In this document: one piece after another, positions 3,184 through 47,856 of the stretch
Layout: each line of letters begins with the position of its first letter
Position numbering within the stretch: the first letter of the stretch is position 1
Source: Parcubacteria group bacterium
GTDB taxonomy: Bacteria > Patescibacteriota > Patescibacteriia > UBA1558 > GWA2-36-10
Direction of reading: 5' to 3'
Length of the DNA stretch: 64,000 bases
Assembly: GCA_003104935.1 (NCBI GenBank)
Contig: PQAE01000007.1
Span: forward strand, 47,221 to 111,220
Position numbers and translations under genes: made by a program
Notes under the pieces: generated by a model
What the model saw: the letters and a program-made list of their open reading frames with translations, nothing else
What the model was told of the DNA's origin: nothing
Database searches by the model: none

Positions 3184-4073
3184 TTACGCAAATACGAATG
3201 CGCTACACTAGTATAGCCCTGGGTGGTGCGAATACTGCCGTGACCTAATAATTTCTGGATGTAGCGAATATCCAAGCCACTTTCCAATAAATGCGTGGCA
3301 AAGCTGTGCCGCAAACTGTGGCAAGTGGCCGCTGCGTTAATACCCGCTTTGGTCATGGCAGTAGTAAAAATTTTTTGGGCGGTGCGCTGACTGATGTGCG
3401 AACGATTGCCGGCACCCGGAAAAATATATTCCGAATAATCCGCTCTTTGTTTACTATACGCTTCCCACAGATCAAGACTCTGTAGGCTTAATAAAGTATA
3501 GCGATCCTTGTGTCCTTTGGCGTCCTTAACCAGTAATAATTTTTCGGCGGGTCGCAAATGATCCGGCTTTAATTTTACTACCTCGGAGACCCGCAAGCCC
3601 GATCCGTAAAGCAAGGACAAAAGCAGACGATGTTTAATATTGATCGGAACATTTATAATTCTTATAATCTGCTCGCGCGCTAAAATTGTCGGCAAAAATT
3701 TTTCCCGCCGCGGCCGGCGGACATGAGTGAAGAGACGGCGATGCAAAAAATCATCGTAGTAAAAACGCAAGGCAGAAATAACCAAATTTAAAGAAGTGTT
3801 GGAATACCCACGAGACTTGAGATATAAAAGATAATTTTTTATATCTTGAGCGTTCACTTCTTTGGCCGATTTAGAGACAAAATCCAAAAACCTCTGATTA
3901 TGCCCCAAATAAGCCTTGACAGTCCGATGTGAAAAACCTCTAATAATGAGCTCCTGAACTAAAAAAGCCAAGGGATGAGCCCGAGGCACTAACTCAACTG
4001 TCTTTTTAGCTAAATCTGGACTATTGGTTAAGTCCGACTGACCATTATAGTCAGCAAAAAAATCGCTTTTCAT
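3162..4073 (-). CDS. tyrosine site-specific recombinase, XerC/XerD-like, encoded divergently from the cassette array (candidate array recombinase)
   Basis: Catalytic residues present: RVSEV (Arg), KDAKGHKDRYTLL (Lys hairpin), HSLRHSFATHLL (HxxR), LGHGSIRTTQGYTSV (Tyr). The Lys-to-HxxR spacing is ~55 aa, so the IntI-specific insertion appears absent. Confidence 0.8.
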   Translation of the reverse strand: MKSDFFADYNGQSDLTNSPDLAKKTVELVPRAHPLAFLVQELIIRGFSHRTVKAYLGHNQRFLDFVSKSAKEVNAQDIKNYLLYLKSRGYSNTSLNLVISALRFYYDDFLHRRLFTHVRRPRREKFLPTILAREQIIRIINVPINIKHRLLLSLLYGSGLRVSEVVKLKPDHLRPAEKLLLVKDAKGHKDRYTLLSLQSLDLWEAYSKQRADYSEYIFPGAGNRSHISQRTAQKIFTTAMTKAGINAAATCHSLRHSFATHLLESGLDIRYIQKLLGHGSIRTTQGYTSVAHSYLRNIKSPLD

Positions 4074-5231: not shown

Positions 5232-5376
5232 AAATATAATTTAGTCCGCTCACTGAAATTCCTCGCCCATTAATAATTAATGGCCGCTCGGAACTTCAGA
5301 TACGCTGGCCTGTTATGTGAAATAAATAAATTCTTTTCTGCTATCGCAGAAAAATTATCCGTTCAATTTTTAATTT

Positions 5377-6519
5377 ATGTATCCAGAAAAATACAATCCG
5401 ACGCAAGAAGAAATTAACAAGGCTGAAAGCATAATGACAGACGAACAACGTCAAGCTTCTGAAATTCGGGCTGAAAATTACGAACAGGTGCAACCCCCGT
5501 GGAAAGATTTTACGGAAAAGATTGATGAAAATTTTGTCCGCAAAAGACCATCCCCTGAAGTTGTTAAAGCAATGAATCAGAGCCTAGAGGAATTGGGCCA
5601 GACATTTGAGGGGTCTGGTTTGAATTGGCACCTTGATGGAGCTTTAAATATATCCTTAATGAATGGCGCCGGCGAAAACCCTGAAAAATACATCGGCGAA
5701 CACAAGGATGTTGATATCTCCGTAGAGAAAGACGAACTTGAGGCATTAGAGGCGCAATTGCTTAAAAACGGTTATGGCTTATTTTTATCTCGCACAGGAG
5801 ATAAAATAAAAAATAAAATAATGAGGCGAGTTGGACATGGGGATTTCGCCGAATCAGATACAGAACATATGCTAATTGCCGCTATAGATGAAAACGGTAA
5901 AATCCGCCAAGATAAAGCCTTAAATTTTGTAGATATCCATATTATCCAAAGAGATGAGGCTGGGAAACCCTTGGGCGTATCAGGTACGCCCATCCCTGAA
6001 AAATGGGTTCAACCGCAGCCAATGGAATTTCATAGCAAACAAATAAATGTTTCACATCCTGGAAAAGTGCTTTATTTCAAGCTCCACCAAGATAGAAATT
6101 ATGATGTTACCGACGCGGAAAAATTAATTGAAACAGGTAAAATCATTGAAGAAGATATTGATGATATAGAAAAAGTATATAGGGATGAATTTAAAGCAAA
6201 TGTTGAGCGCGGTCGAAAAATTTTTGAGGGTTATACCAATCAACTCAAACCAGAAATGAGTGCGGACGAAATTTTTAATCTTATGCAAAGCCAGCCCGAA
6301 TTTCAAAAACGAGGAGATATGGCAGTGGGGTTAAAGAAATTAGCAGAAAAAATTGCAGAATCTGAAAATAAATCAGTTGATAATATATTATCTATTGCTA
6401 TCACCTTTTTTGGAATTGAAGAAAAGTATAATCAAAAGCGTCAAATATTAAACAGGATGAAACAAAGGGTAAAGGATATTAAAGAAATGGAACGAATTTG
6501 CGGAGAATTACAAAAATAA
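5377..6519 (+). CDS. hypothetical protein (cassette), possibly a nucleotidyltransferase fold
   Basis: 380-aa ORF; GSGLNWHLDGALNISLMNG...HKDVDISV resembles a GS-x(n)-D-x-D nucleotidyltransferase motif. This is a weak call. Confidence 0.45.
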   Translation: MYPEKYNPTQEEINKAESIMTDEQRQASEIRAENYEQVQPPWKDFTEKIDENFVRKRPSPEVVKAMNQSLEELGQTFEGSGLNWHLDGALNISLMNGAGENPEKYIGEHKDVDISVEKDELEALEAQLLKNGYGLFLSRTGDKIKNKIMRRVGHGDFAESDTEHMLIAAIDENGKIRQDKALNFVDIHIIQRDEAGKPLGVSGTPIPEKWVQPQPMEFHSKQINVSHPGKVLYFKLHQDRNYDVTDAEKLIETGKIIEEDIDDIEKVYRDEFKANVERGRKIFEGYTNQLKPEMSADEIFNLMQSQPEFQKRGDMAVGLKKLAEKIAESENKSVDNILSIAITFFGIEEKYNQKRQILNRMKQRVKDIKEMERICGELQK

Positions 6520-6622
6520 AATTTGCCTGAATAATGCCTGCTATCGCTCGCGAATTTATTTACATCAGCTAACACTGCGTATCTGGTTAATAGAATAAAT
6601 GATTTATTATTAATTTAAAAAT

Positions 6623-6979
6623 ATGGAAAAACTAATAGAATTAGCGCAGTCTCCATCAAGTCCTGGGATAGAGACCGTTGATAAAATGGTTATGAAATTA
6701 CATGTACCCTGTTCTGAAAAAAGTGTAACTGTGCAAATAAATCCATTTTTACAAGATTATGAAGAAAATGCAGACCAGCCAAATGTTCAAATAAGACAAA
6801 TGCAAATAACGAGTACTACATCAGATACAAAAACTCTTACTTTTGATTTTGAAAATAACTCTACTCATAACATAGATATAGATGGAGAAAATTATCAAAT
6901 AACCCTAATGAATATTGGAAAAGAAAAAACTCAAGATGGTGAATTTCCCGCTTTTGAATTTCTAGTCAAAAAAGATTAA
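6623..6979 (+). CDS. hypothetical protein (cassette; inside palindrome 6567-7106)
   Basis: 118-aa ORF between arm AGCTAACACTGCGTATCTGGTTAATAGAATAAATGAT and its complement, which is split at 6980-6999 / 7081-7106. Confidence 0.5.
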   Translation: MEKLIELAQSPSSPGIETVDKMVMKLHVPCSEKSVTVQINPFLQDYEENADQPNVQIRQMQITSTTSDTKTLTFDFENNSTHNIDIDGENYQITLMNIGKEKTQDGEFPAFEFLVKKD

Positions 6980-28072: not shown

Positions 28073-29038
28073 ATGGAAATCAACAAACTCACTAGTCGCG
28101 CCATCCTAACCGCTGTCCAACAAGCGACTAATATTTTAGTTATCGCTCATAAAAAACCGGATGGTGATACTCTGGGTTCCAACCTAGCCTTTACCAAATA
28201 TCTGCTTAGTGTCGGTAAAAAATTTACCAGCTTTTGCCTACACCCGGCACCATCCCACCTAGCCTTTCTACCTAATAGCCATCTGATCAGTAATGATCAC
28301 CTCACCTTTAGCCAAACTTTTGACCTGGTTATTTTGCTGGATTCCAGTAATTTAGAATATGCCGGCGTTGACAAGCTCATGACCGCACTCCGGCCGGGTT
28401 ATAAAATAATTAATATTGACCACCATGTATCCAATACTATGTTTGGCGATATTAATCTGGTGATCTATGAAGCCTCTTCTACCGCCGAGGTGGTCTACCG
28501 TCTTTTTAAAGACTGGGACATAGACTGGAGTGCGGGTATCGCTTCTTGCCTGGCCTGCGGCATGATCACCGACACCGGCGGATTTAAAAATCCTGCTACC
28601 AACTATATTACACTGCTGGCCGCTTCCGATTTAAAAAGCAAAGGAGCAAATATCCATCAGATTACCAAACAAGCTCTAGGTAGTACAAAGCTCAATAATC
28701 TCCGTTTGTGGGGACGGGCTCTAGAGCGGCTCAGGGACGTGCCACACTATAATCTGATTTATACTTGGCTGACTGAACAGGATTTTACAGAATGCGCTAC
28801 GGATGAATCGGCCGTGGACGGACTGTCAAACTTTTTGCATATTATCAAGGAGGGAAAAATAATTATGGTTCTGCGCCAAAGCAAGGTCGATACCATCAAG
28901 GGGTCACTGCGCACTACCAGTAATATTGACCTGACAAAAATAGCGGAAATTTTCGGTGGCGGCGGACACAAAAAGGCCGCCGGTTTCAGCTTGTCAGGCC
29001 GGCTAGAATGTAATGATGGTCAGTTAATTATCAAATAG
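28073..29038 (+). CDS. nrnA: DHH/DHHA1 bifunctional oligoribonuclease / pAp phosphatase
   Basis: NIDHHVSNTMFGD (DHH) and GGGHKKAAGF (DHHA1 GGGH). Confidence 0.75.
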   Translation: MEINKLTSRAILTAVQQATNILVIAHKKPDGDTLGSNLAFTKYLLSVGKKFTSFCLHPAPSHLAFLPNSHLISNDHLTFSQTFDLVILLDSSNLEYAGVDKLMTALRPGYKIINIDHHVSNTMFGDINLVIYEASSTAEVVYRLFKDWDIDWSAGIASCLACGMITDTGGFKNPATNYITLLAASDLKSKGANIHQITKQALGSTKLNNLRLWGRALERLRDVPHYNLIYTWLTEQDFTECATDESAVDGLSNFLHIIKEGKIIMVLRQSKVDTIKGSLRTTSNIDLTKIAEIFGGGGHKKAAGFSLSGRLECNDGQLIIK

Positions 29039-29953
29039 GAAAATCTTACTTAATAATTCTTTCCTTAATTCCCAAGTATTGGCGTGTTTCAGCACACCGA
29101 GGTACGACGGTGCGTTATTTTTATTTACTAAGCGTAAAATTCTTCTCTTTGTCTTAGTTCGTAAAACTCTATAATGCGGCAAGGTCACATAGCCCAAAAA
29201 ATCTATACCTTGACTGACTTTTCTGATACTTATTTTCCCTGGGTGTATATCTAATCGTAATTGATCCTTTAAAAATGTGTTTAATTCTTTCAAAATATTT
29301 GCTAAATAACCTTTATCTTTATGCAAAATTATAAAATCGTCACAATAACGAATATAAAATTTCTGTTTTAACCCGTGTTTTACAAATTGATCTAATTCAT
29401 TTAGATAAATATTGCCAAAAAGCTGACTAGTTACATTGCCTAAGGGTAGTCCCTTATTATCTGCCGAAGAAAAACTATTAATTATTTTCTTAATTAACCA
29501 CATAACATCGACTTCTTCCACTCTATTCTCTAACAAAGCTAATAGTATCTTATGATCTATATTATTGAAAAACTTCTTGATATCACATTTTAAAGCATAG
29601 ATCTTTTGGCTATAATTCAGGCTCGCTCTAAGCACAAAATTTCCTAATCGTTTAACCCCCTTGTGCGTGCCTTTTCCTATCCGACATGAATAAGAATCAT
29701 ATATAAATTGCTTGTTAAAAATATGATATAATATTCTATATAAAGCTTGATGAACCACTCGATCTCGCACCCCTGCTTTATGGATATGCCTGAGCTTGGG
29801 GTCACAAACATAAAAGGCCTGATAAGGTGCGTGATTATAAGTCTTGTCCACTAATTCTTGGTGAAGTTGAAAAATATTATCTTCAAGATTAAACTCAAAT
29901 TCCTGTGTTTCCACCTTTCTGGTCTTACCCCTTTTAAATTCACGCCAGGCCAA
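29024..29953 (-). CDS. diversity-generating retroelement reverse transcriptase (DGR-1); N-terminus lacks an ATG in the conserved frame
   Basis: RT motifs YALKCDIKKFFNNIDH, GLPLGNVTSQLFGNIYLNELD (the DGR-type xGxxxSQ rather than QGxxxSP) and YIRYCDDFIIL; ~50% identical to the RT at 45002-45988. The ORF-track start is TTG. Confidence 0.85.
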   Translation of the reverse strand: MAWREFKRGKTRKVETQEFEFNLEDNIFQLHQELVDKTYNHAPYQAFYVCDPKLRHIHKAGVRDRVVHQALYRILYHIFNKQFIYDSYSCRIGKGTHKGVKRLGNFVLRASLNYSQKIYALKCDIKKFFNNIDHKILLALLENRVEEVDVMWLIKKIINSFSSADNKGLPLGNVTSQLFGNIYLNELDQFVKHGLKQKFYIRYCDDFIILHKDKGYLANILKELNTFLKDQLRLDIHPGKISIRKVSQGIDFLGYVTLPHYRVLRTKTKRRILRLVNKNNAPSYLGVLKHANTWELRKELLSKIFLFDN

Positions 29954-30027
29954 AAATAAATTATCTAAAGAAATAACTTCATTAAAAAGACTATTATGAT
30001 TATACCCCCCCCCCTCATAAGATAGGT

Positions 30028-30369
30028 TTGCCTATTGTCCATGAGATTACTAATTTATACCGAGAATTATATATCACCCGCCACCAAATACCAAAGGCCG
30101 AACGCTATGGGATTTTTCAGAAAATAGAAAACACAGTATTAGACTGCCTAGAGATTGCCCTCACCGCGGCCTTGACCGAGAAAGACAAAAAATCAATATT
30201 ATTGGTGAGACTAAAAATAAAGATTGAAATCATACAAAAATTAGTAAGATTAATTAGAGAATTAGAAATTATCTCGGAAAGAAAACATATTCTTTTTTCA
30301 CAAAAATCCATAACAATTTCTAAAATGACCAGTGGCTGGCTTAAGTATTTAAATAAAGAGCCTATCTAG
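30028..30369 (+). CDS. Avd-like four-helix-bundle protein (accessory variability determinant), divergent from the RT
   Basis: 113 aa; PKAERYGIFQKIENTVLDCLEIALTAA resembles the Avd / 23S-IVS four-helix-bundle family; paralogous to 46050-46364 at the protein level only. Confidence 0.6.
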   Translation: MPIVHEITNLYRELYITRHQIPKAERYGIFQKIENTVLDCLEIALTAALTEKDKKSILLVRLKIKIEIIQKLVRLIRELEIISERKHILFSQKSITISKMTSGWLKYLNKEPI

Positions 30370-30385
30370 GCCCTTTATTTTTTGT

Positions 30386-30511
30386 GGAAACTTCTGCGCG
30401 ACCCCGCAAGTTGTCGTTGGCGTTATCCGGATTGTACCAGTTGACGTTCAGCTTGCTGTTGTCGCTGTTCCAGTTCACGTTCGGCACGTTACCATTGCGG
30501 TTACGCGAACC
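30386..30511 (-). repeat. DGR-1 template repeat (TR1)
   Basis: 126 bp matching 30840-30965 with about 20 mismatches; every mismatch is a T on the plus strand, i.e. an A on the transcribed minus strand. Confidence 0.85.
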
Positions 30512-30836
30512 TATTTTTTGTTAAGTCCCATCCAAAAACGTTAGATTATATCTATATAACCCAACGCCCCGGCTCTTTGACCGGGCAATGTGTGTGGATC
30601 TTTAAATCCAACCAGAATTTAACAAGCAGTTTCCTTTACCCCGTTAGAGACTTATCTCTAATGGGGTATTTTTTGGCAAATCGCTACCGAGCTAAGCCCG
30701 ACCGATTATATTAGCCATATCTTTATTATACGAAAAGGCGCCGATGATGCCAAGCTTGGTATAGCTTGTTCACCGACGCCTTATGTTTTGTACTTTCTAC
30801 CCCAACCCCGAGGGTTAAAGTAAAAAGTTACAAGGC

Positions 30837-31523
30837 TTAGGAAACTACTGCGCGACCCCGCAAGCCGTCGTCGGCGCTATCCGGATGGCACCAGTCGACG
30901 CACAGCTTGCCGAGGCCGCTGCTCCAGTACACGCACGGCACGCTACCATTGCGGTGACGCGAACCGGCGCAGAGCGTGGTGTTCTGGATGTCCAGATGCT
31001 TGTTGGTCTCCGAGTAGTATTTCAACTCGTAGACCAGTCTTTCCAGCAAAGTGATGCTGGAGATTTTTCGCTTCTGGAGATCATTGGCCGAGAGATTCTT
31101 CAGCTCTTCGTCTGCTTCCACGCGGTCGCGGACACGGATGGCGTAGGACGCCTCGGTGTTGCGATCGTTGTTAGGCACATCTTTGTCCAGATCATTTGTG
31201 TATGACCAAGACTTGAAGGCCTTGGAGCAGGCTTGGAAAGCCTGATTGATGGTCAGACCCTGGGGGATGAAGAGGACTCTGGTGAAGTCTTCTTGCTCTT
31301 CGGGAATGGAGACATCCGAGAAGTCCACGGACAGACGGAAGTACTTGCGGTAGAACTCCTGCCATTCCTCTTGGATGGAGTTGATGGCGAAGGGGTTTTG
31401 GCGCTGAGCAAAGAGATCCAGCTCCCGCGGCGTGATGACTCCGCTCTTGATCTTGAGCAAAATATCGCTCATGGTACCAAGCACAGTGCCCGGCACCATA
31501 CCGACCGTCGCCTGCTTAGGCAT
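30837..31523 (-). CDS. DGR-1 target (variable) protein with a C-terminal C-type-lectin/FGE-like variable region
   Basis: C-terminus ...CAGSRHRNGSVPCVYWSSGLGKLCVDWCHPDSADDGLRGRAVVS is encoded by VR1 at 30840-30965, up to the stop at 30837. Confidence 0.8.
   Translation of the reverse strand: MPKQATVGMVPGTVLGTMSDILLKIKSGVITPRELDLFAQRQNPFAINSIQEEWQEFYRKYFRLSVDFSDVSIPEEQEDFTRVLFIPQGLTINQAFQACSKAFKSWSYTNDLDKDVPNNDRNTEASYAIRVRDRVEADEELKNLSANDLQKRKISSITLLERLVYELKYYSETNKHLDIQNTTLCAGSRHRNGSVPCVYWSSGLGKLCVDWCHPDSADDGLRGRAVVS
30840..30965 (-). repeat. DGR-1 variable repeat (VR1)
   Basis: Covers the 3' end of the target ORF; differs from TR1 only at TR adenine positions; GC-rich IMH-like 3' end CTTGCGGGGTCGCGCAG. 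Confidence 0.85.
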
Positions 31524-45001: not shown

Positions 45002-45988
45002 CTACAAAGGAAAGTCTAAAAGGCCTTTTAACTTCATAGTATTACCGTAACCAAATAGCCCTAAATACGATTGTTTAGTAAATTCATTGTAGTTTTTTAA
45101 TTTGAGCCTGGTCAACATTCTTTTTTTACTTGTTGTCCTCAAAACACGATGATCTGTAAAATGTACCCACCCTAAAAAATCTATACCGGAATACAGGGTT
45201 TTAATAAAAACCTTATCGGGATGTAATTGTAATCGCAAATCATTATTTAAAAAATGTTTTATCACGCCCAAAATATTTTCTAACCATTTTTTGTCCTTAG
45301 ATAATATAACAAAATCATCGGCATATCGAATATAATATTTGGCTTTTAGCTTATGTTTTACAAACTGGTCAAATGTATTCATATAAACATTGACTAGTAG
45401 TTGTGATGTCAAATTTCCTAAAGGTAAACCTTTGTTATTGATGTGAAAACTATCAATCACTCTATTTAATAGCCATAAAATATTTTCATCAGCTATATAC
45501 TGACTTAAAATATCTATTAATATACTATGATCAATATTGGCAAAAAATTTCTTAATATCTCCTTTCAACACCCAAGCTGTTTTGGTATGATTTTGAGATG
45601 CTCGATAAGCAAAATTACAAAACTTGTTTATGGCCTTGTGAGTCCCTTTACCTAAACGGCAGGAATAAGAATCAGCAATAAATGTCGTGTCAAAAAAAGG
45701 ATACAAAACCCTATAGATAGCGTGATGTAATAGTCTATCGCGAACACTGGCCTTATGAATGTTTCTTGGTTTAGGGTCAGAAATATTGAAAGCCTGATAA
45801 TCCGAATGCCAATAAGTCTTATTTTTCAAATCACTATGTAGAGCTATAATATTACTCATTAAATCTAATTCAAATTCTTGGACATCCCGACGACTTCTTT
45901 TGCCTTTGATAAACTCCTGCCAGGCTAAAAGCAAATTTTCCAAAGAAATGATATAATCATAACTATAATTAAATTTAATTTTGCTCAT
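45002..45988 (-). CDS. diversity-generating retroelement reverse transcriptase (DGR-2)
   Basis: GLPLGNLTSQLLVNVYMNTFD (xGxxxSQ), YIRYADDFVIL; ATG start preceded by a G10-TATAAT element. Confidence 0.85.
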   Translation of the reverse strand: MSKIKFNYSYDYIISLENLLLAWQEFIKGKRSRRDVQEFELDLMSNIIALHSDLKNKTYWHSDYQAFNISDPKPRNIHKASVRDRLLHHAIYRVLYPFFDTTFIADSYSCRLGKGTHKAINKFCNFAYRASQNHTKTAWVLKGDIKKFFANIDHSILIDILSQYIADENILWLLNRVIDSFHINNKGLPLGNLTSQLLVNVYMNTFDQFVKHKLKAKYYIRYADDFVILSKDKKWLENILGVIKHFLNNDLRLQLHPDKVFIKTLYSGIDFLGWVHFTDHRVLRTTSKKRMLTRLKLKNYNEFTKQSYLGLFGYGNTMKLKGLLDFPL

Positions 45989-46049
45989 ATGACAGATTAT
46001 ACCCCCCCCCCGTCTATTACCAGTACTTCAAAAACTAAAAAGTGTTTAT

Positions 46050-46364
46050 TTGCTATGGTATAGCTATTACCAAGTTTTGCCAAAAAATCATCGCTATTCT
46101 CTGGGAATAAAAGTTGATAATTTACTGACGGAAACAATAGAATCAGTGGCTACGGCTATTTTCTTGGTACCCAACGACAAATTACCATACGTGCGACGAG
46201 GCATTCAGAAATTAGACACCTTAAAAATATTTCTAATGATTCTCTGGGAAACGAAATCTTTAGACGATAATAAATATATCGCCTTGTCAGTAAAAATAGA
46301 CGAGGTTGGCAAAATGTTGGGTGGCTGGCAAGGACAGATATTAAAACAAAACTCTCCTAAATAA
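46050..46364 (+). CDS. Avd-like four-helix-bundle protein, divergent from RT-2
   Basis: 104 aa; PKNHRYSLGIKVDNLLTETIESVATA; homologous to 30028-30369. Confidence 0.6.
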   Translation: MLWYSYYQVLPKNHRYSLGIKVDNLLTETIESVATAIFLVPNDKLPYVRRGIQKLDTLKIFLMILWETKSLDDNKYIALSVKIDEVGKMLGGWQGQILKQNSPK

Positions 46365-46385
46365 ATTAGGAGAGAAACGAAGTAT

Positions 46386-46507
46386 TTGCAGACCGCCGCG
46401 GGGTTGTTGTCGTTGAAGTTGTTGTCCAGGTAGTTGTAGTTCCAGTTCCACTGCTGGCCATTCCAGTAGAGATAGCGGACGTACAAGTTGCCGTTGGAGT
46501 TGCGGTA
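46386..46507 (-). repeat. DGR-2 template repeat (TR2)
   Basis: 122 bp matching 46929-47050; all 14 mismatches are T on the plus strand (A on the minus strand). Confidence 0.85.
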
Positions 46508-46818
46508 TTATATATAATGCCGTCTATAGCACTGCCCATAGACCCGTTCGACTCCATCCCGCGATGCGGGACTTCGCTCAGGGTCATCCCGAATTTATTG
46601 AAGGATGAATACTCGCCGGGCTGTATCGTATTTGTGATCTAAAATCACTTAGCACTATATACCAAGTATCTTCATTTTTTGAGTTTCTAGGCATCTCTCT
46701 ATCTTAAACCGCAGTCTAAGCTATTCTCAATGCATAGATACTGGATTCGGCCGTAAAAAACCTTGATCTTTTACTGATTAGCCTAGTACCAATTATACTT
46801 TATCATAAATTGAAGAAG

Positions 46819-46855
46819 CCTCATACATTACTGTATGAGGCTTCTCGTTTTTGTA
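46819..46855 (+). terminator. plus-strand rho-independent terminator
   Basis: GAAGCCTCATACATTACTGTATGAGGCTTC followed by TCGTTTTTG. Confidence 0.55.
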
Positions 46856-46924: not shown

Positions 46925-47503
46925 TTACTTGCAGACCGCCGCGGGGTTGCCGTCGTTGAAGTAGCTGCCCAGGTAGTAGTAGTTCCAGTTCCACTGCTGG
47001 CCATCCCAGTAGAGATAGCGGACGCACAAGTCGCCGTAGGAGCTGCGGTAGATGGTACCCCAGAAGTAGGTGTACTTTCCTTTCCACTCCTCGGGAATGA
47101 ACTGGGGATTTTTCAGATACCAATCCAAGAGATTGGCATTGAAGACCGGCTGGCCCTGGAGCTCCTTACGGAGATCGTGGCCTATGATCCAGCGACCGTC
47201 CTTCTTCCTCTCGGAGAGGTAGAGGCTGATCTTGGTGGGATCAAACTCCAACTTCCCACCACGGATGTGCTCCTCGACCTTCCAGCCGTCAGGCACGAAG
47301 GGGTTGGCGTCGAGGTCGACGATGTGTTTGGTGACGACGATCTGGGCCAGGCCGTGAAGCAGGGCTTTGATGTCGATGAGTTGAGGGTACTGACCCAGCA
47401 AAGTGATTTCTGCCGGAGTAAAATCCTTCGCCTCCAGAGCGTTCATCAGCTGATGAGTCTGACCCTCAGAATAAGAAGACATGTCTTCTCTCCTTTTTGG
47501 CAC
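46925..47503 (-). CDS. DGR-2 target (variable) protein with a Tyr/Trp-rich C-terminus
   Basis: C-terminus ...CVRYLYWDGQQWNWNYYYLGSYFNDGNPAAVCK is encoded by VR2. Confidence 0.75.
   Translation of the reverse strand: MPKRREDMSSYSEGQTHQLMNALEAKDFTPAEITLLGQYPQLIDIKALLHGLAQIVVTKHIVDLDANPFVPDGWKVEEHIRGGKLEFDPTKISLYLSERKKDGRWIIGHDLRKELQGQPVFNANLLDWYLKNPQFIPEEWKGKYTYFWGTIYRSSYGDLCVRYLYWDGQQWNWNYYYLGSYFNDGNPAAVCK
46929..47050 (-). repeat. DGR-2 variable repeat (VR2)
   Basis: Covers the 3' end of the target ORF and differs from TR2 only at TR adenine positions. Confidence 0.85.
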
Positions 47504-47856
47504 ATGTGCCTTGATTCGCCAGAGGGCTCCATTTGGTAGCCATAGCTACAAAAGTCCAATCTTCTTTACCGTCACCCTGAATTTATTTCAGGGTCTGGTA
47601 TGTGAGACTCTGAAACAAGTTCAGAGTGACCATCATTTATTAGGCTTTTGTAGCTATGGCTAGCCAAAATATGCAAGTAAGATATTAATGTACTAACATA
47701 TAATGTTAGCATATTTTATGAATTTTGTCAATAGTAGGTAAATACCCTATATAAAGCCTGTTACTCTGGAGTCTGTAGGACGATAGAGTCTATATGTATA
47801 TAATCTTATGGATTCTATCGCCGCGCTAAGCGCGGCTCCAGAATGACAAATAAAAA

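Follow-up and report, generated by a model that had tools for sequence, protein, structure and literature searches.

The stretch of 64,000 nucleotides (nt) analysed here, hereafter the window, comes from a Parcubacteria group bacterium (contig PQAE01000007.1, positions 47,221 to 111,220) and carries two diversity-generating retroelements, DGR1 and DGR2. In both of them the gene for the reverse transcriptase (RT), the template repeat (TR), the variable repeat (VR) and the target gene lie on the minus strand, and a small open reading frame (ORF) lies between RT and TR on the plus strand (Table 1). These two small ORFs, which an earlier note on this DNA had proposed to be genes for the accessory protein Avd, are the subject of the present work. 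Each element has the parts by which a DGR is defined, namely an RT beside a TR/VR pair, repeats that differ at template adenines and a VR at the 3′ end of the target ORF; both VRs reach the stop codon of their target gene. All mismatches inside the repeats (20 of 20 substitutions in DGR1 and 12 of 12 in DGR2) are A-to-N changes on the minus strand, so the template RNA has minus-strand sense. We hold it to be likely, with a probability of roughly 0.8, that the small ORFs are the Avd genes of two separate DGRs of the type found in the Candidate Phyla Radiation (CPR), with the order target/VR - TR - (avd) - RT, and that each element is run as three short transcription units.

The two proteins are homologous to each other (BLASTP, 25% identity over 92 amino acids, E 2e-9) and their genes are without significant similarity at the nucleotide level (best blastn E 0.14), just as had been noted from the sequence. 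The further claim, that they belong to the four-helix-bundle type of Avd, agrees with profile, fold and charge. Against Pfam bAvd (PF22296), with its gathering score of 40 bits, Avd1 scores 41.4 bits and Avd2 40.0 bits over nearly their full length, which makes both of them borderline members. The NCBIfam model DivGenRetAVD (NF033474) gives 46.7 bits for Avd1 (E 3e-12) and 54.8 bits for Avd2 (E 9e-15), which indicates homology. Both proteins are small and basic, with isoelectric points (pI) of 9.64 for Avd1 and 9.52 for Avd2; the searchable text of Wu et al. (PMC5758913) reports a mean pI of 9.5 ± 0.7 for Avd proteins. The AlphaFold model of Avd1 (predicted local distance difference test, pLDDT, 93.9) consists of four helices (2-18, 23-49, 52-78 and 84-109). 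In a Foldseek search with this model, the Avd of Bordetella phage BPP-1 (4dwl) was matched with a template modelling (TM) score of 0.85 and a root-mean-square deviation of 1.8, and 8ub7, Avd in a DGR ribonucleoprotein, with a TM score of 0.83; the best match was 2gsc (TM 0.89). Judged by these profiles and by the modelled structure, both ORFs are genuine Avd accessory genes of two DGRs. The Avd2 family extends to more than 2115 homologous database clusters, all of them with PF22296, and the RT family to more than 8000. RT2 and the two Avds each have an identical counterpart among the proteins of Parcubacteria group bacterium C3F02, which for RT2 is NCBI C3F02_03015 (100% identity). The two Avd proteins are already in public databases, where they are named merely hypothetical proteins. 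Another contig of C3F02 encodes a third Avd (NCBI C3F02_01190) with 70% identity to Avd2; this organism therefore carries at least three DGRs. A Pfam search gave no meaningful match for either target protein.

In both DGRs avd is opposite in strand to RT, TR and VR, being divergent from RT and convergent with TR, and here the earlier description held. That avd stops close to TR was also right, although the distance of 17-21 nt was not: by the repeat boundaries of our analysis it amounts to 16 nt for DGR1 and to 18 nt for DGR2. A survey of gene orientation in related elements, which the earlier note had suggested, was carried out on 80 loci from 80 species, gathered with an RT alignment and nearly all labelled Patescibacteria (metagenome-assembled genomes). 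Among the 72 loci with enough DNA upstream of RT to place avd, 71 have it directly upstream of RT on the opposite strand. TR was found in 62 elements, both window elements included, and lies on the RT strand in all 62; measured from the avd stop codon, its 3′ end falls between -8 and +80 nt, with 61 of the elements staying inside 40 nt. Such an arrangement corresponds to the published architecture B3, "TR-(avd)-RT", in which parentheses denote the reverse strand. According to the searchable text of Wu et al. (Nucleic Acids Res 2018, PMC5758913), B3 makes up 90% of the DGRs in the CPR set and its cassettes need at least two transcription units. The window elements show the order and strands of B3 as given there (target/VR, TR, reversed avd, RT), share its host group (CPR/Patescibacteria) and present no architectural difference from it. 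The view that a reversed avd departs from canonical DGRs had taken the Bordetella phage layout as its reference and has to be given up: reversed avd is the ordinary, dominant and already published CPR layout, and nothing is new in the orientation itself. Promoters, a leader RNA, a terminator inside avd and an avd-RT repeat tract, on the other hand, are not described in the searchable text of that paper (PMC5758913), where a count of the word "promoter" gives 0. Of the 72 informative loci, L075 alone is an exception, with an Avd homologue (1388-1978) about 1.5 kb upstream of RT and on the same strand. The primary description of CPR DGRs is reportedly that of Paul and colleagues in Nature Microbiology in 2017.

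Table 1. Features of the two DGRs in the window (positions counted from its first letter).
Feature	Position	Strand	Basis or remark
avd of DGR1 (113 aa, pI 9.6)	30028-30369	+	Pfam, NCBIfam, AlphaFold, Foldseek
avd of DGR2 (116 aa, pI 9.52)	46014-46364 (listed ORF 46050-46364, from TTG)	+	Pfam, NCBIfam, alignment of N-terminal extension with 43 relatives
RT of DGR1	29024-29953 (conserved frame runs on upstream to ~30004)	-	RVT_1 E 1.6e-22; 51% identical to RT2
RT of DGR2	45002-45988	-	RVT_1 E 1.1e-26
TR1	30386-30511	-	84% identity to VR1
VR1	30840-30965	-	3′ end of DGR1 target gene
TR2	46383-46507	-	90% identity to VR2
VR2	46926-47050	-	3′ end of DGR2 target gene
Target gene of DGR1	30837-31523	-	ORF and VR1
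Target gene of DGR2	46925-47503	-	ORF and VR2
C10 homopolymer (G10 on RT strand), avd1/RT1 spacer	30005-30014		
C10 homopolymer (G10 on RT strand), avd2/RT2 spacer	46002-46011		
TATAAT, -10-like hexamer abutting G-run, upstream of RT1	29999-30004	-	Sequence; geometry as in 27/62 loci
TATAAT, -10-like hexamer abutting G-run, 7 nt before RT2 ATG	45996-46001	-	Sequence; hexamer and ATG at 7 nt as in 17 relatives
13-bp hairpin across avd1 stop codon, directly 3′ of TR1 on TR strand	30351-30380	-	Weak U-rich tail
Predicted intrinsic terminator of TR2 RNA, CTCTCCTAA-loop-TTAGGAGAG then TTTTGTTTT	46342-46374	-	Terminator scan and fold
Predicted DGR1 TR-RNA promoter TTGGCA-17-TATAAT (30753-30725) and structured leader (~30718-30512)	30512-30753	-	Promoter scan, 11/12 matches
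Predicted DGR2 TR-RNA -10 region (46792-46806) and structured leader, 3′ domain 46505-46682	46505-46806	-	Covariance model R1
14-bp hairpin scored as plus-strand terminator, DGR1	30637-30668	+	Inside minus-strand DGR1 leader
14-bp hairpin scored as plus-strand terminator, DGR2	46814-46845	+	Upstream of TR-RNA -10 box

The spacer between VR and TR is constant in length (median 341 nt) and conserved in sequence. An extended -10 box (TGnTAnnnT) occurs in 42 of the 62 loci, at a median of 230 nt before TR, and the leader RNA that would start there is predicted to be structured. For an alignment of 48 loci, RNAalifold returned 42 predicted pairs, 37 of them with compensatory changes. Cells of this alignment are paired in 94.7% of cases, against 68% after column shuffles and about 42% when the partners were slid; the covariation score is 0.82, against 0.29 for the shuffles and 0.14-0.21 for the slid partners. 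Because many of the conserved pairs are G-U, the RNA under selection is the one with the sense of TR. A covariance model of the 3′ domain of the leader (R1) matches DGR2 with 98.3 bits (E 1.6e-18), and the fold z-score of the DGR2 leader is -3.5. The leader of DGR1 is strongly structured as well (fold z-score -5.1). Compared with the family model, the 3′ domain of the DGR2 leader carries 68 additional nt, inserted into the terminal loop of one hairpin (46530-46600). Of this insertion, 22 nt (46583-46604) are found again, with 82% identity, upstream of the target gene at 47571-47592, which may reflect chance or a small repeat element.

Structured RNAs beside bacterial RT genes have been collected in Rfam as RT motifs, and the leader resembles them in this respect; one of them, RT-10, located between TR and brt in phage, was proposed to be a primer element (Weinberg et al. 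2017, PMC5737381). At the gathering level, the leader has no Rfam match in the window or in 18 relatives. At a relaxed level its sole match is a sub-threshold one to RT-16 (RF03019), with 24.3 bits in locus L003 where the gathering score is 50 bits, and in the window itself only chance-level matches to the plus-strand hairpin of DGR2 were returned. What RT-16 and the 3′ domain of the leader have in common is a hairpin with an A-rich loop, the motifs AUAAnAUACAGCC and GGCGGUG, and a long closing helix.

At the other end of the template, a scan for intrinsic terminators at the TR/avd junction found one on the TR strand in 43 of the 62 loci and on the avd strand in 2, while control windows placed inside avd or TR gave 1-7. 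The consensus is CTCTCC-loop-GGAGAG followed by TTTTGTTTT, and the stems vary in sequence among loci with the pairing always kept. Read in reverse complement, the codons that specify the conserved KQNSP at the Avd C-terminus yield the 3′ arm and the U-tract of this terminator; in DGR2 the predicted terminator extends over the stop codon and the last codons of avd2 (KQNSPK), with a fold z-score of -4.1. The terminator of the template RNA thus appears to be dual-coded with the C-terminus and the stop codon of Avd. The corresponding hairpin of DGR1 has -17.9 kcal/mol and a z-score of -2.8 on the minus strand, and its plus-strand counterpart is weaker and contains a mismatch.

It is also conceivable that the avd mRNA, instead of ending at its stop codon, continues antisense across TR and the leader as far as about 30668 in DGR1 and 46845 in DGR2, pairs with the template RNA and in this way regulates mutagenesis. 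The near absence of junction terminators on the avd strand makes such read-through physically plausible, the DGR2 junction hairpin has no T-run on the plus strand, and between TR and VR of both window elements stands a strong hairpin with a T-run on the plus strand. For DGR2 such a terminator had been proposed at 46819-46855, just beyond TR2; a hairpin with a T-run is indeed there, but it stands 307 nt past the far end of TR2 and past the whole leader. The second one, in DGR1, was added by our analysis. Plus-strand terminators between TR and VR, however, occur in only 4 of the 62 loci, two of these being the window's own, and the two window hairpins are at non-homologous positions. The one in DGR1 is a stem of the minus-strand leader and is included in its minimum-free-energy fold, and the one in DGR2 sits where relatives have the terminator of the target gene (T-run on the TR strand, 39 of 62 loci). 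Moreover, the conserved G-U pairs of the leader would turn into C-A mismatches in an antisense RNA, the junction hairpin of DGR1 is followed on the plus strand by TTTATTTTTTG, which could stop avd transcription before TR, and the conserved junction terminator is on the TR strand. We regard regulation by antisense read-through as unlikely, though not as negligible.

The spacer between avd and RT has a peculiarity of its own. The first conserved codons of the two genes are mostly some 30-45 nt apart (up to 85), and a simple repeat is present in this short interval in 70 of 74 loci. Read on the RT strand, the repeat is G7-G13 in 62 loci, (GA/AG)10-16 in 5, (CT)10 in 1, (TGGC)6-8 in 2 and a short (GT)4 in 1. 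The two C10 tracts are the only G/C runs of at least 8 nt in the window, and just three other runs of that size occur across 483 kb of related loci. In 27 of 62 loci, both window elements included, a TAnnnT hexamer directly adjoins the G-run, and in 17 of these 27 the ATG of RT lies exactly 7 nt after the hexamer, as it does in DGR2. This geometry suggests that the RT mRNA is leaderless and that the tract is inside the promoter spacer in DGR2 and those 17 loci.

The two proteins have the profile, fold and charge of Avd, the template RNA is on the RT strand, and the layout is kept in essentially all relatives. To these observations we would add a division of each element into three units. The first would be the template RNA, of about 420-440 nt in relatives, with its own extended -10 promoter, a structured 5′ leader of about 230 nt, TR and an intrinsic terminator, the stem and U-tract of which would be encoded antisense in the last codons of avd. 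With the terminator in that position, transcription of TR would therefore stop before it could run antisense through avd into RT. The second unit would be avd, convergent towards TR, and the third RT, divergent from avd across a spacer of about 35 nt and, in DGR2 and the 17 relatives, starting from the putative hexamer next to its ATG. By analogy with the Bordetella phage, where Avd is a pentamer, Avd would bind RT and the template RNA, and an adenine-mutagenised cDNA would be made that replaces VR.

The likeness to the DGR of BPP-1 (mtd-avd-TR-brt, architecture B1) covers the four-helix bundle of Avd, the RT, the TR/VR pair with adenine-specific substitutions and a template in the form of a structured non-coding RNA (ncRNA) flanking TR. 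BPP-1 has a co-directional avd upstream of TR and the priming spacer 3′ of TR, whereas the window DGRs have avd reversed and 3′ of TR, a terminator within about 20 nt after TR and a conserved structured RNA 5′ of TR. The spacer of the phage is 140 nt long and essential; it binds Avd, and the nucleotide used for priming comes from it (PMC7826257). Because almost nothing follows TR in the window elements, that role is probably taken by the 5′ leader, the terminator hairpin or both. The layout would imply that the template RNA stands as a unit by itself, ending inside avd, that the 3′-priming-spacer rule of the phage cannot apply, and that avd and RT share a tiny spacer built on a hypermutable repeat. 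These implications were not found worked out in the literature searched.

Several points weigh against the reading of two Avd genes in elements run as three units. Neither Avd1 nor Avd2 reaches the 80-bit equivalog cutoff of DivGenRetAVD, and a sequence-profile search of the PDB with 45 Avd sequences returned BPP-1 Avd (4dwl) at an insignificant E of 0.77, for which reason fold comparison was used to establish identity. The terminator scan left 19 of the 62 loci without a hit at the TR/avd junction, and the junction hairpin of DGR1 has no clean U-tract. With filters off, the DGR1 leader matches the family model R1 insignificantly (7.6 bits, E 0.14), so we claim for it a strong structure and not membership of the same RNA family; it may be a divergent version. 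The promoters, the terminators and the leaderless start of RT are read from sequence. Start codons are a further difficulty. The listed TTG of avd2 (46050) drops 12 conserved N-terminal residues, LLPVLQKLKSVY, which are in frame from 46014, and at the place of the family's usual TTG avd2 has TTA (46017-46019), which makes its start codon uncertain. RT1 has no canonical start codon (ATG, GTG or TTG) upstream of its conserved N-terminus, and its listed TTG (29953) falls inside a conserved motif. One or both elements could be impaired.

Carried further, these start codons would make one or both elements decaying relics, in which the Avd homologues no longer work with the RT; the finding of only one close relative of Avd1 in a word-indexed search points the same way. 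All ORFs are intact, however, and the confinement of TR/VR differences to template adenines is the signature of past activity and argues that both window elements have been active. The codon before the conserved N-terminal Pro of Avd is TTG in about half of the loci and elsewhere TTA, CTG, CTA, CTT or others; TTA is found there in about 11 relatives, and with so many other variants the supposed start may be a leucine codon and true initiation unusual family-wide. The features of promoter, repeat tract, leader and terminator also persist. The choice is between an unusual mode of initiation in this family and impairment of some copies; that the window holds relics seems improbable to us. The idea that the ORFs are generic four-helix bundles of the 23S-rRNA-intervening-sequence type, neighbours of RT by chance and not DGR components, can call on the best structural match (2gsc), which belongs to that wider superfamily, and on a weak PF05635 match of Avd2, but it is hardly credible given that bAvd and DivGenRetAVD are the best-matching profiles, that BPP-1 Avd is matched in both structures (4dwl, 8ub7), and that 71 of 72 loci show the linkage to RT and TR, the distance to TR being fixed.

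With the two Avd genes and their three-unit elements as our preferred reading, the repeat tract of the avd-RT spacer calls for an explanation. Repeat-controlled phase-variable promoters include the poly-C of Bordetella fim, the poly-G spacer of Neisseria porA and the TA repeat between the divergent genes hifA and hifB of Haemophilus. The spacer tract shares with them its position in a promoter or 5′ region, its nature (a G/C homopolymer of 7-13 nt or a di- or tetranucleotide repeat), the short spacer between divergent genes and the abutting -10 hexamer. A further likeness would be the difference of 1 nt in tract length between otherwise identical sequences, with the reservation that these are assembly calls and artefacts are possible. 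We compared seven strains, each represented by assemblies encoding an identical RT protein. In three of them (loci L092-L097, L102-L105 and L108-L114) the tract differs by one G (G11/G10, G9/G10 and G9/G10), and this is the sole difference over 1.9-2.4 kb; the sequences are assembly consensus sequences, in which library or sequencing stutter is possible. In the other four the tract is invariant, and two of these have interrupted tracts. A metagenome scan for tract variants of one Rifle strain retrieved 2 contigs only, both with G9. Taken as it stands, the pattern of tract lengths fits a phase-variable promoter of DGR genes. The difference from the known cases is that the controlled genes would be a mutagenesis machine and not a surface antigen, in hosts that are uncultured Patescibacteria.

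We put forward, tentatively and at less than even odds, a joint reading of these features. The spacer repeat, whether a G/C homopolymer or, in some relatives, (GA)n, (CT)n or (TGGC)n, would be a hypermutable switch or rheostat of RT and/or Avd expression, with slipped-strand mispairing toggling targeted hypermutation stochastically. At the same time the template RNA would be a self-contained ncRNA with its functional domain 5′ of TR, a terminator dual-coded with the Avd C-terminus and a priming geometry unlike that of the Bordetella phage. In the literature searched we found no paper linking DGRs with phase variation or homopolymers. If true, the repeat-tract switch would be a simple answer to the question of DGR regulation in the largest natural reservoir of these elements. 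The leader RNA, the Avd-dual-coded terminator and the avd-RT repeat tract form a regulatory anatomy that deserves attention, the tract above all.

We also considered that the C-run might act inside the avd coding sequence, as a poly-proline translational frameshift switch. This candidate was rejected as a general rule: an in-frame canonical start upstream of the tract is present in 24 of 73 loci, which is about the chance level, and in many loci the frame opens just 0-2 codons before the tract. It may hold in single strains, as in locus L103, where a C10 tract has an in-frame ATG.

Two of the surveyed loci showed additional features. Locus L007 contains a second DGR-like RT (5652-6822) with a co-directional Avd homologue (5266-5676), a G10 run directly upstream of this avd (5253-5262) and another G10 run just after the first RT (3404-3413). 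In locus L036, Rfam identifies a group I intron (847-1123, 72.6 bits) about 2.4 kb upstream of RT.

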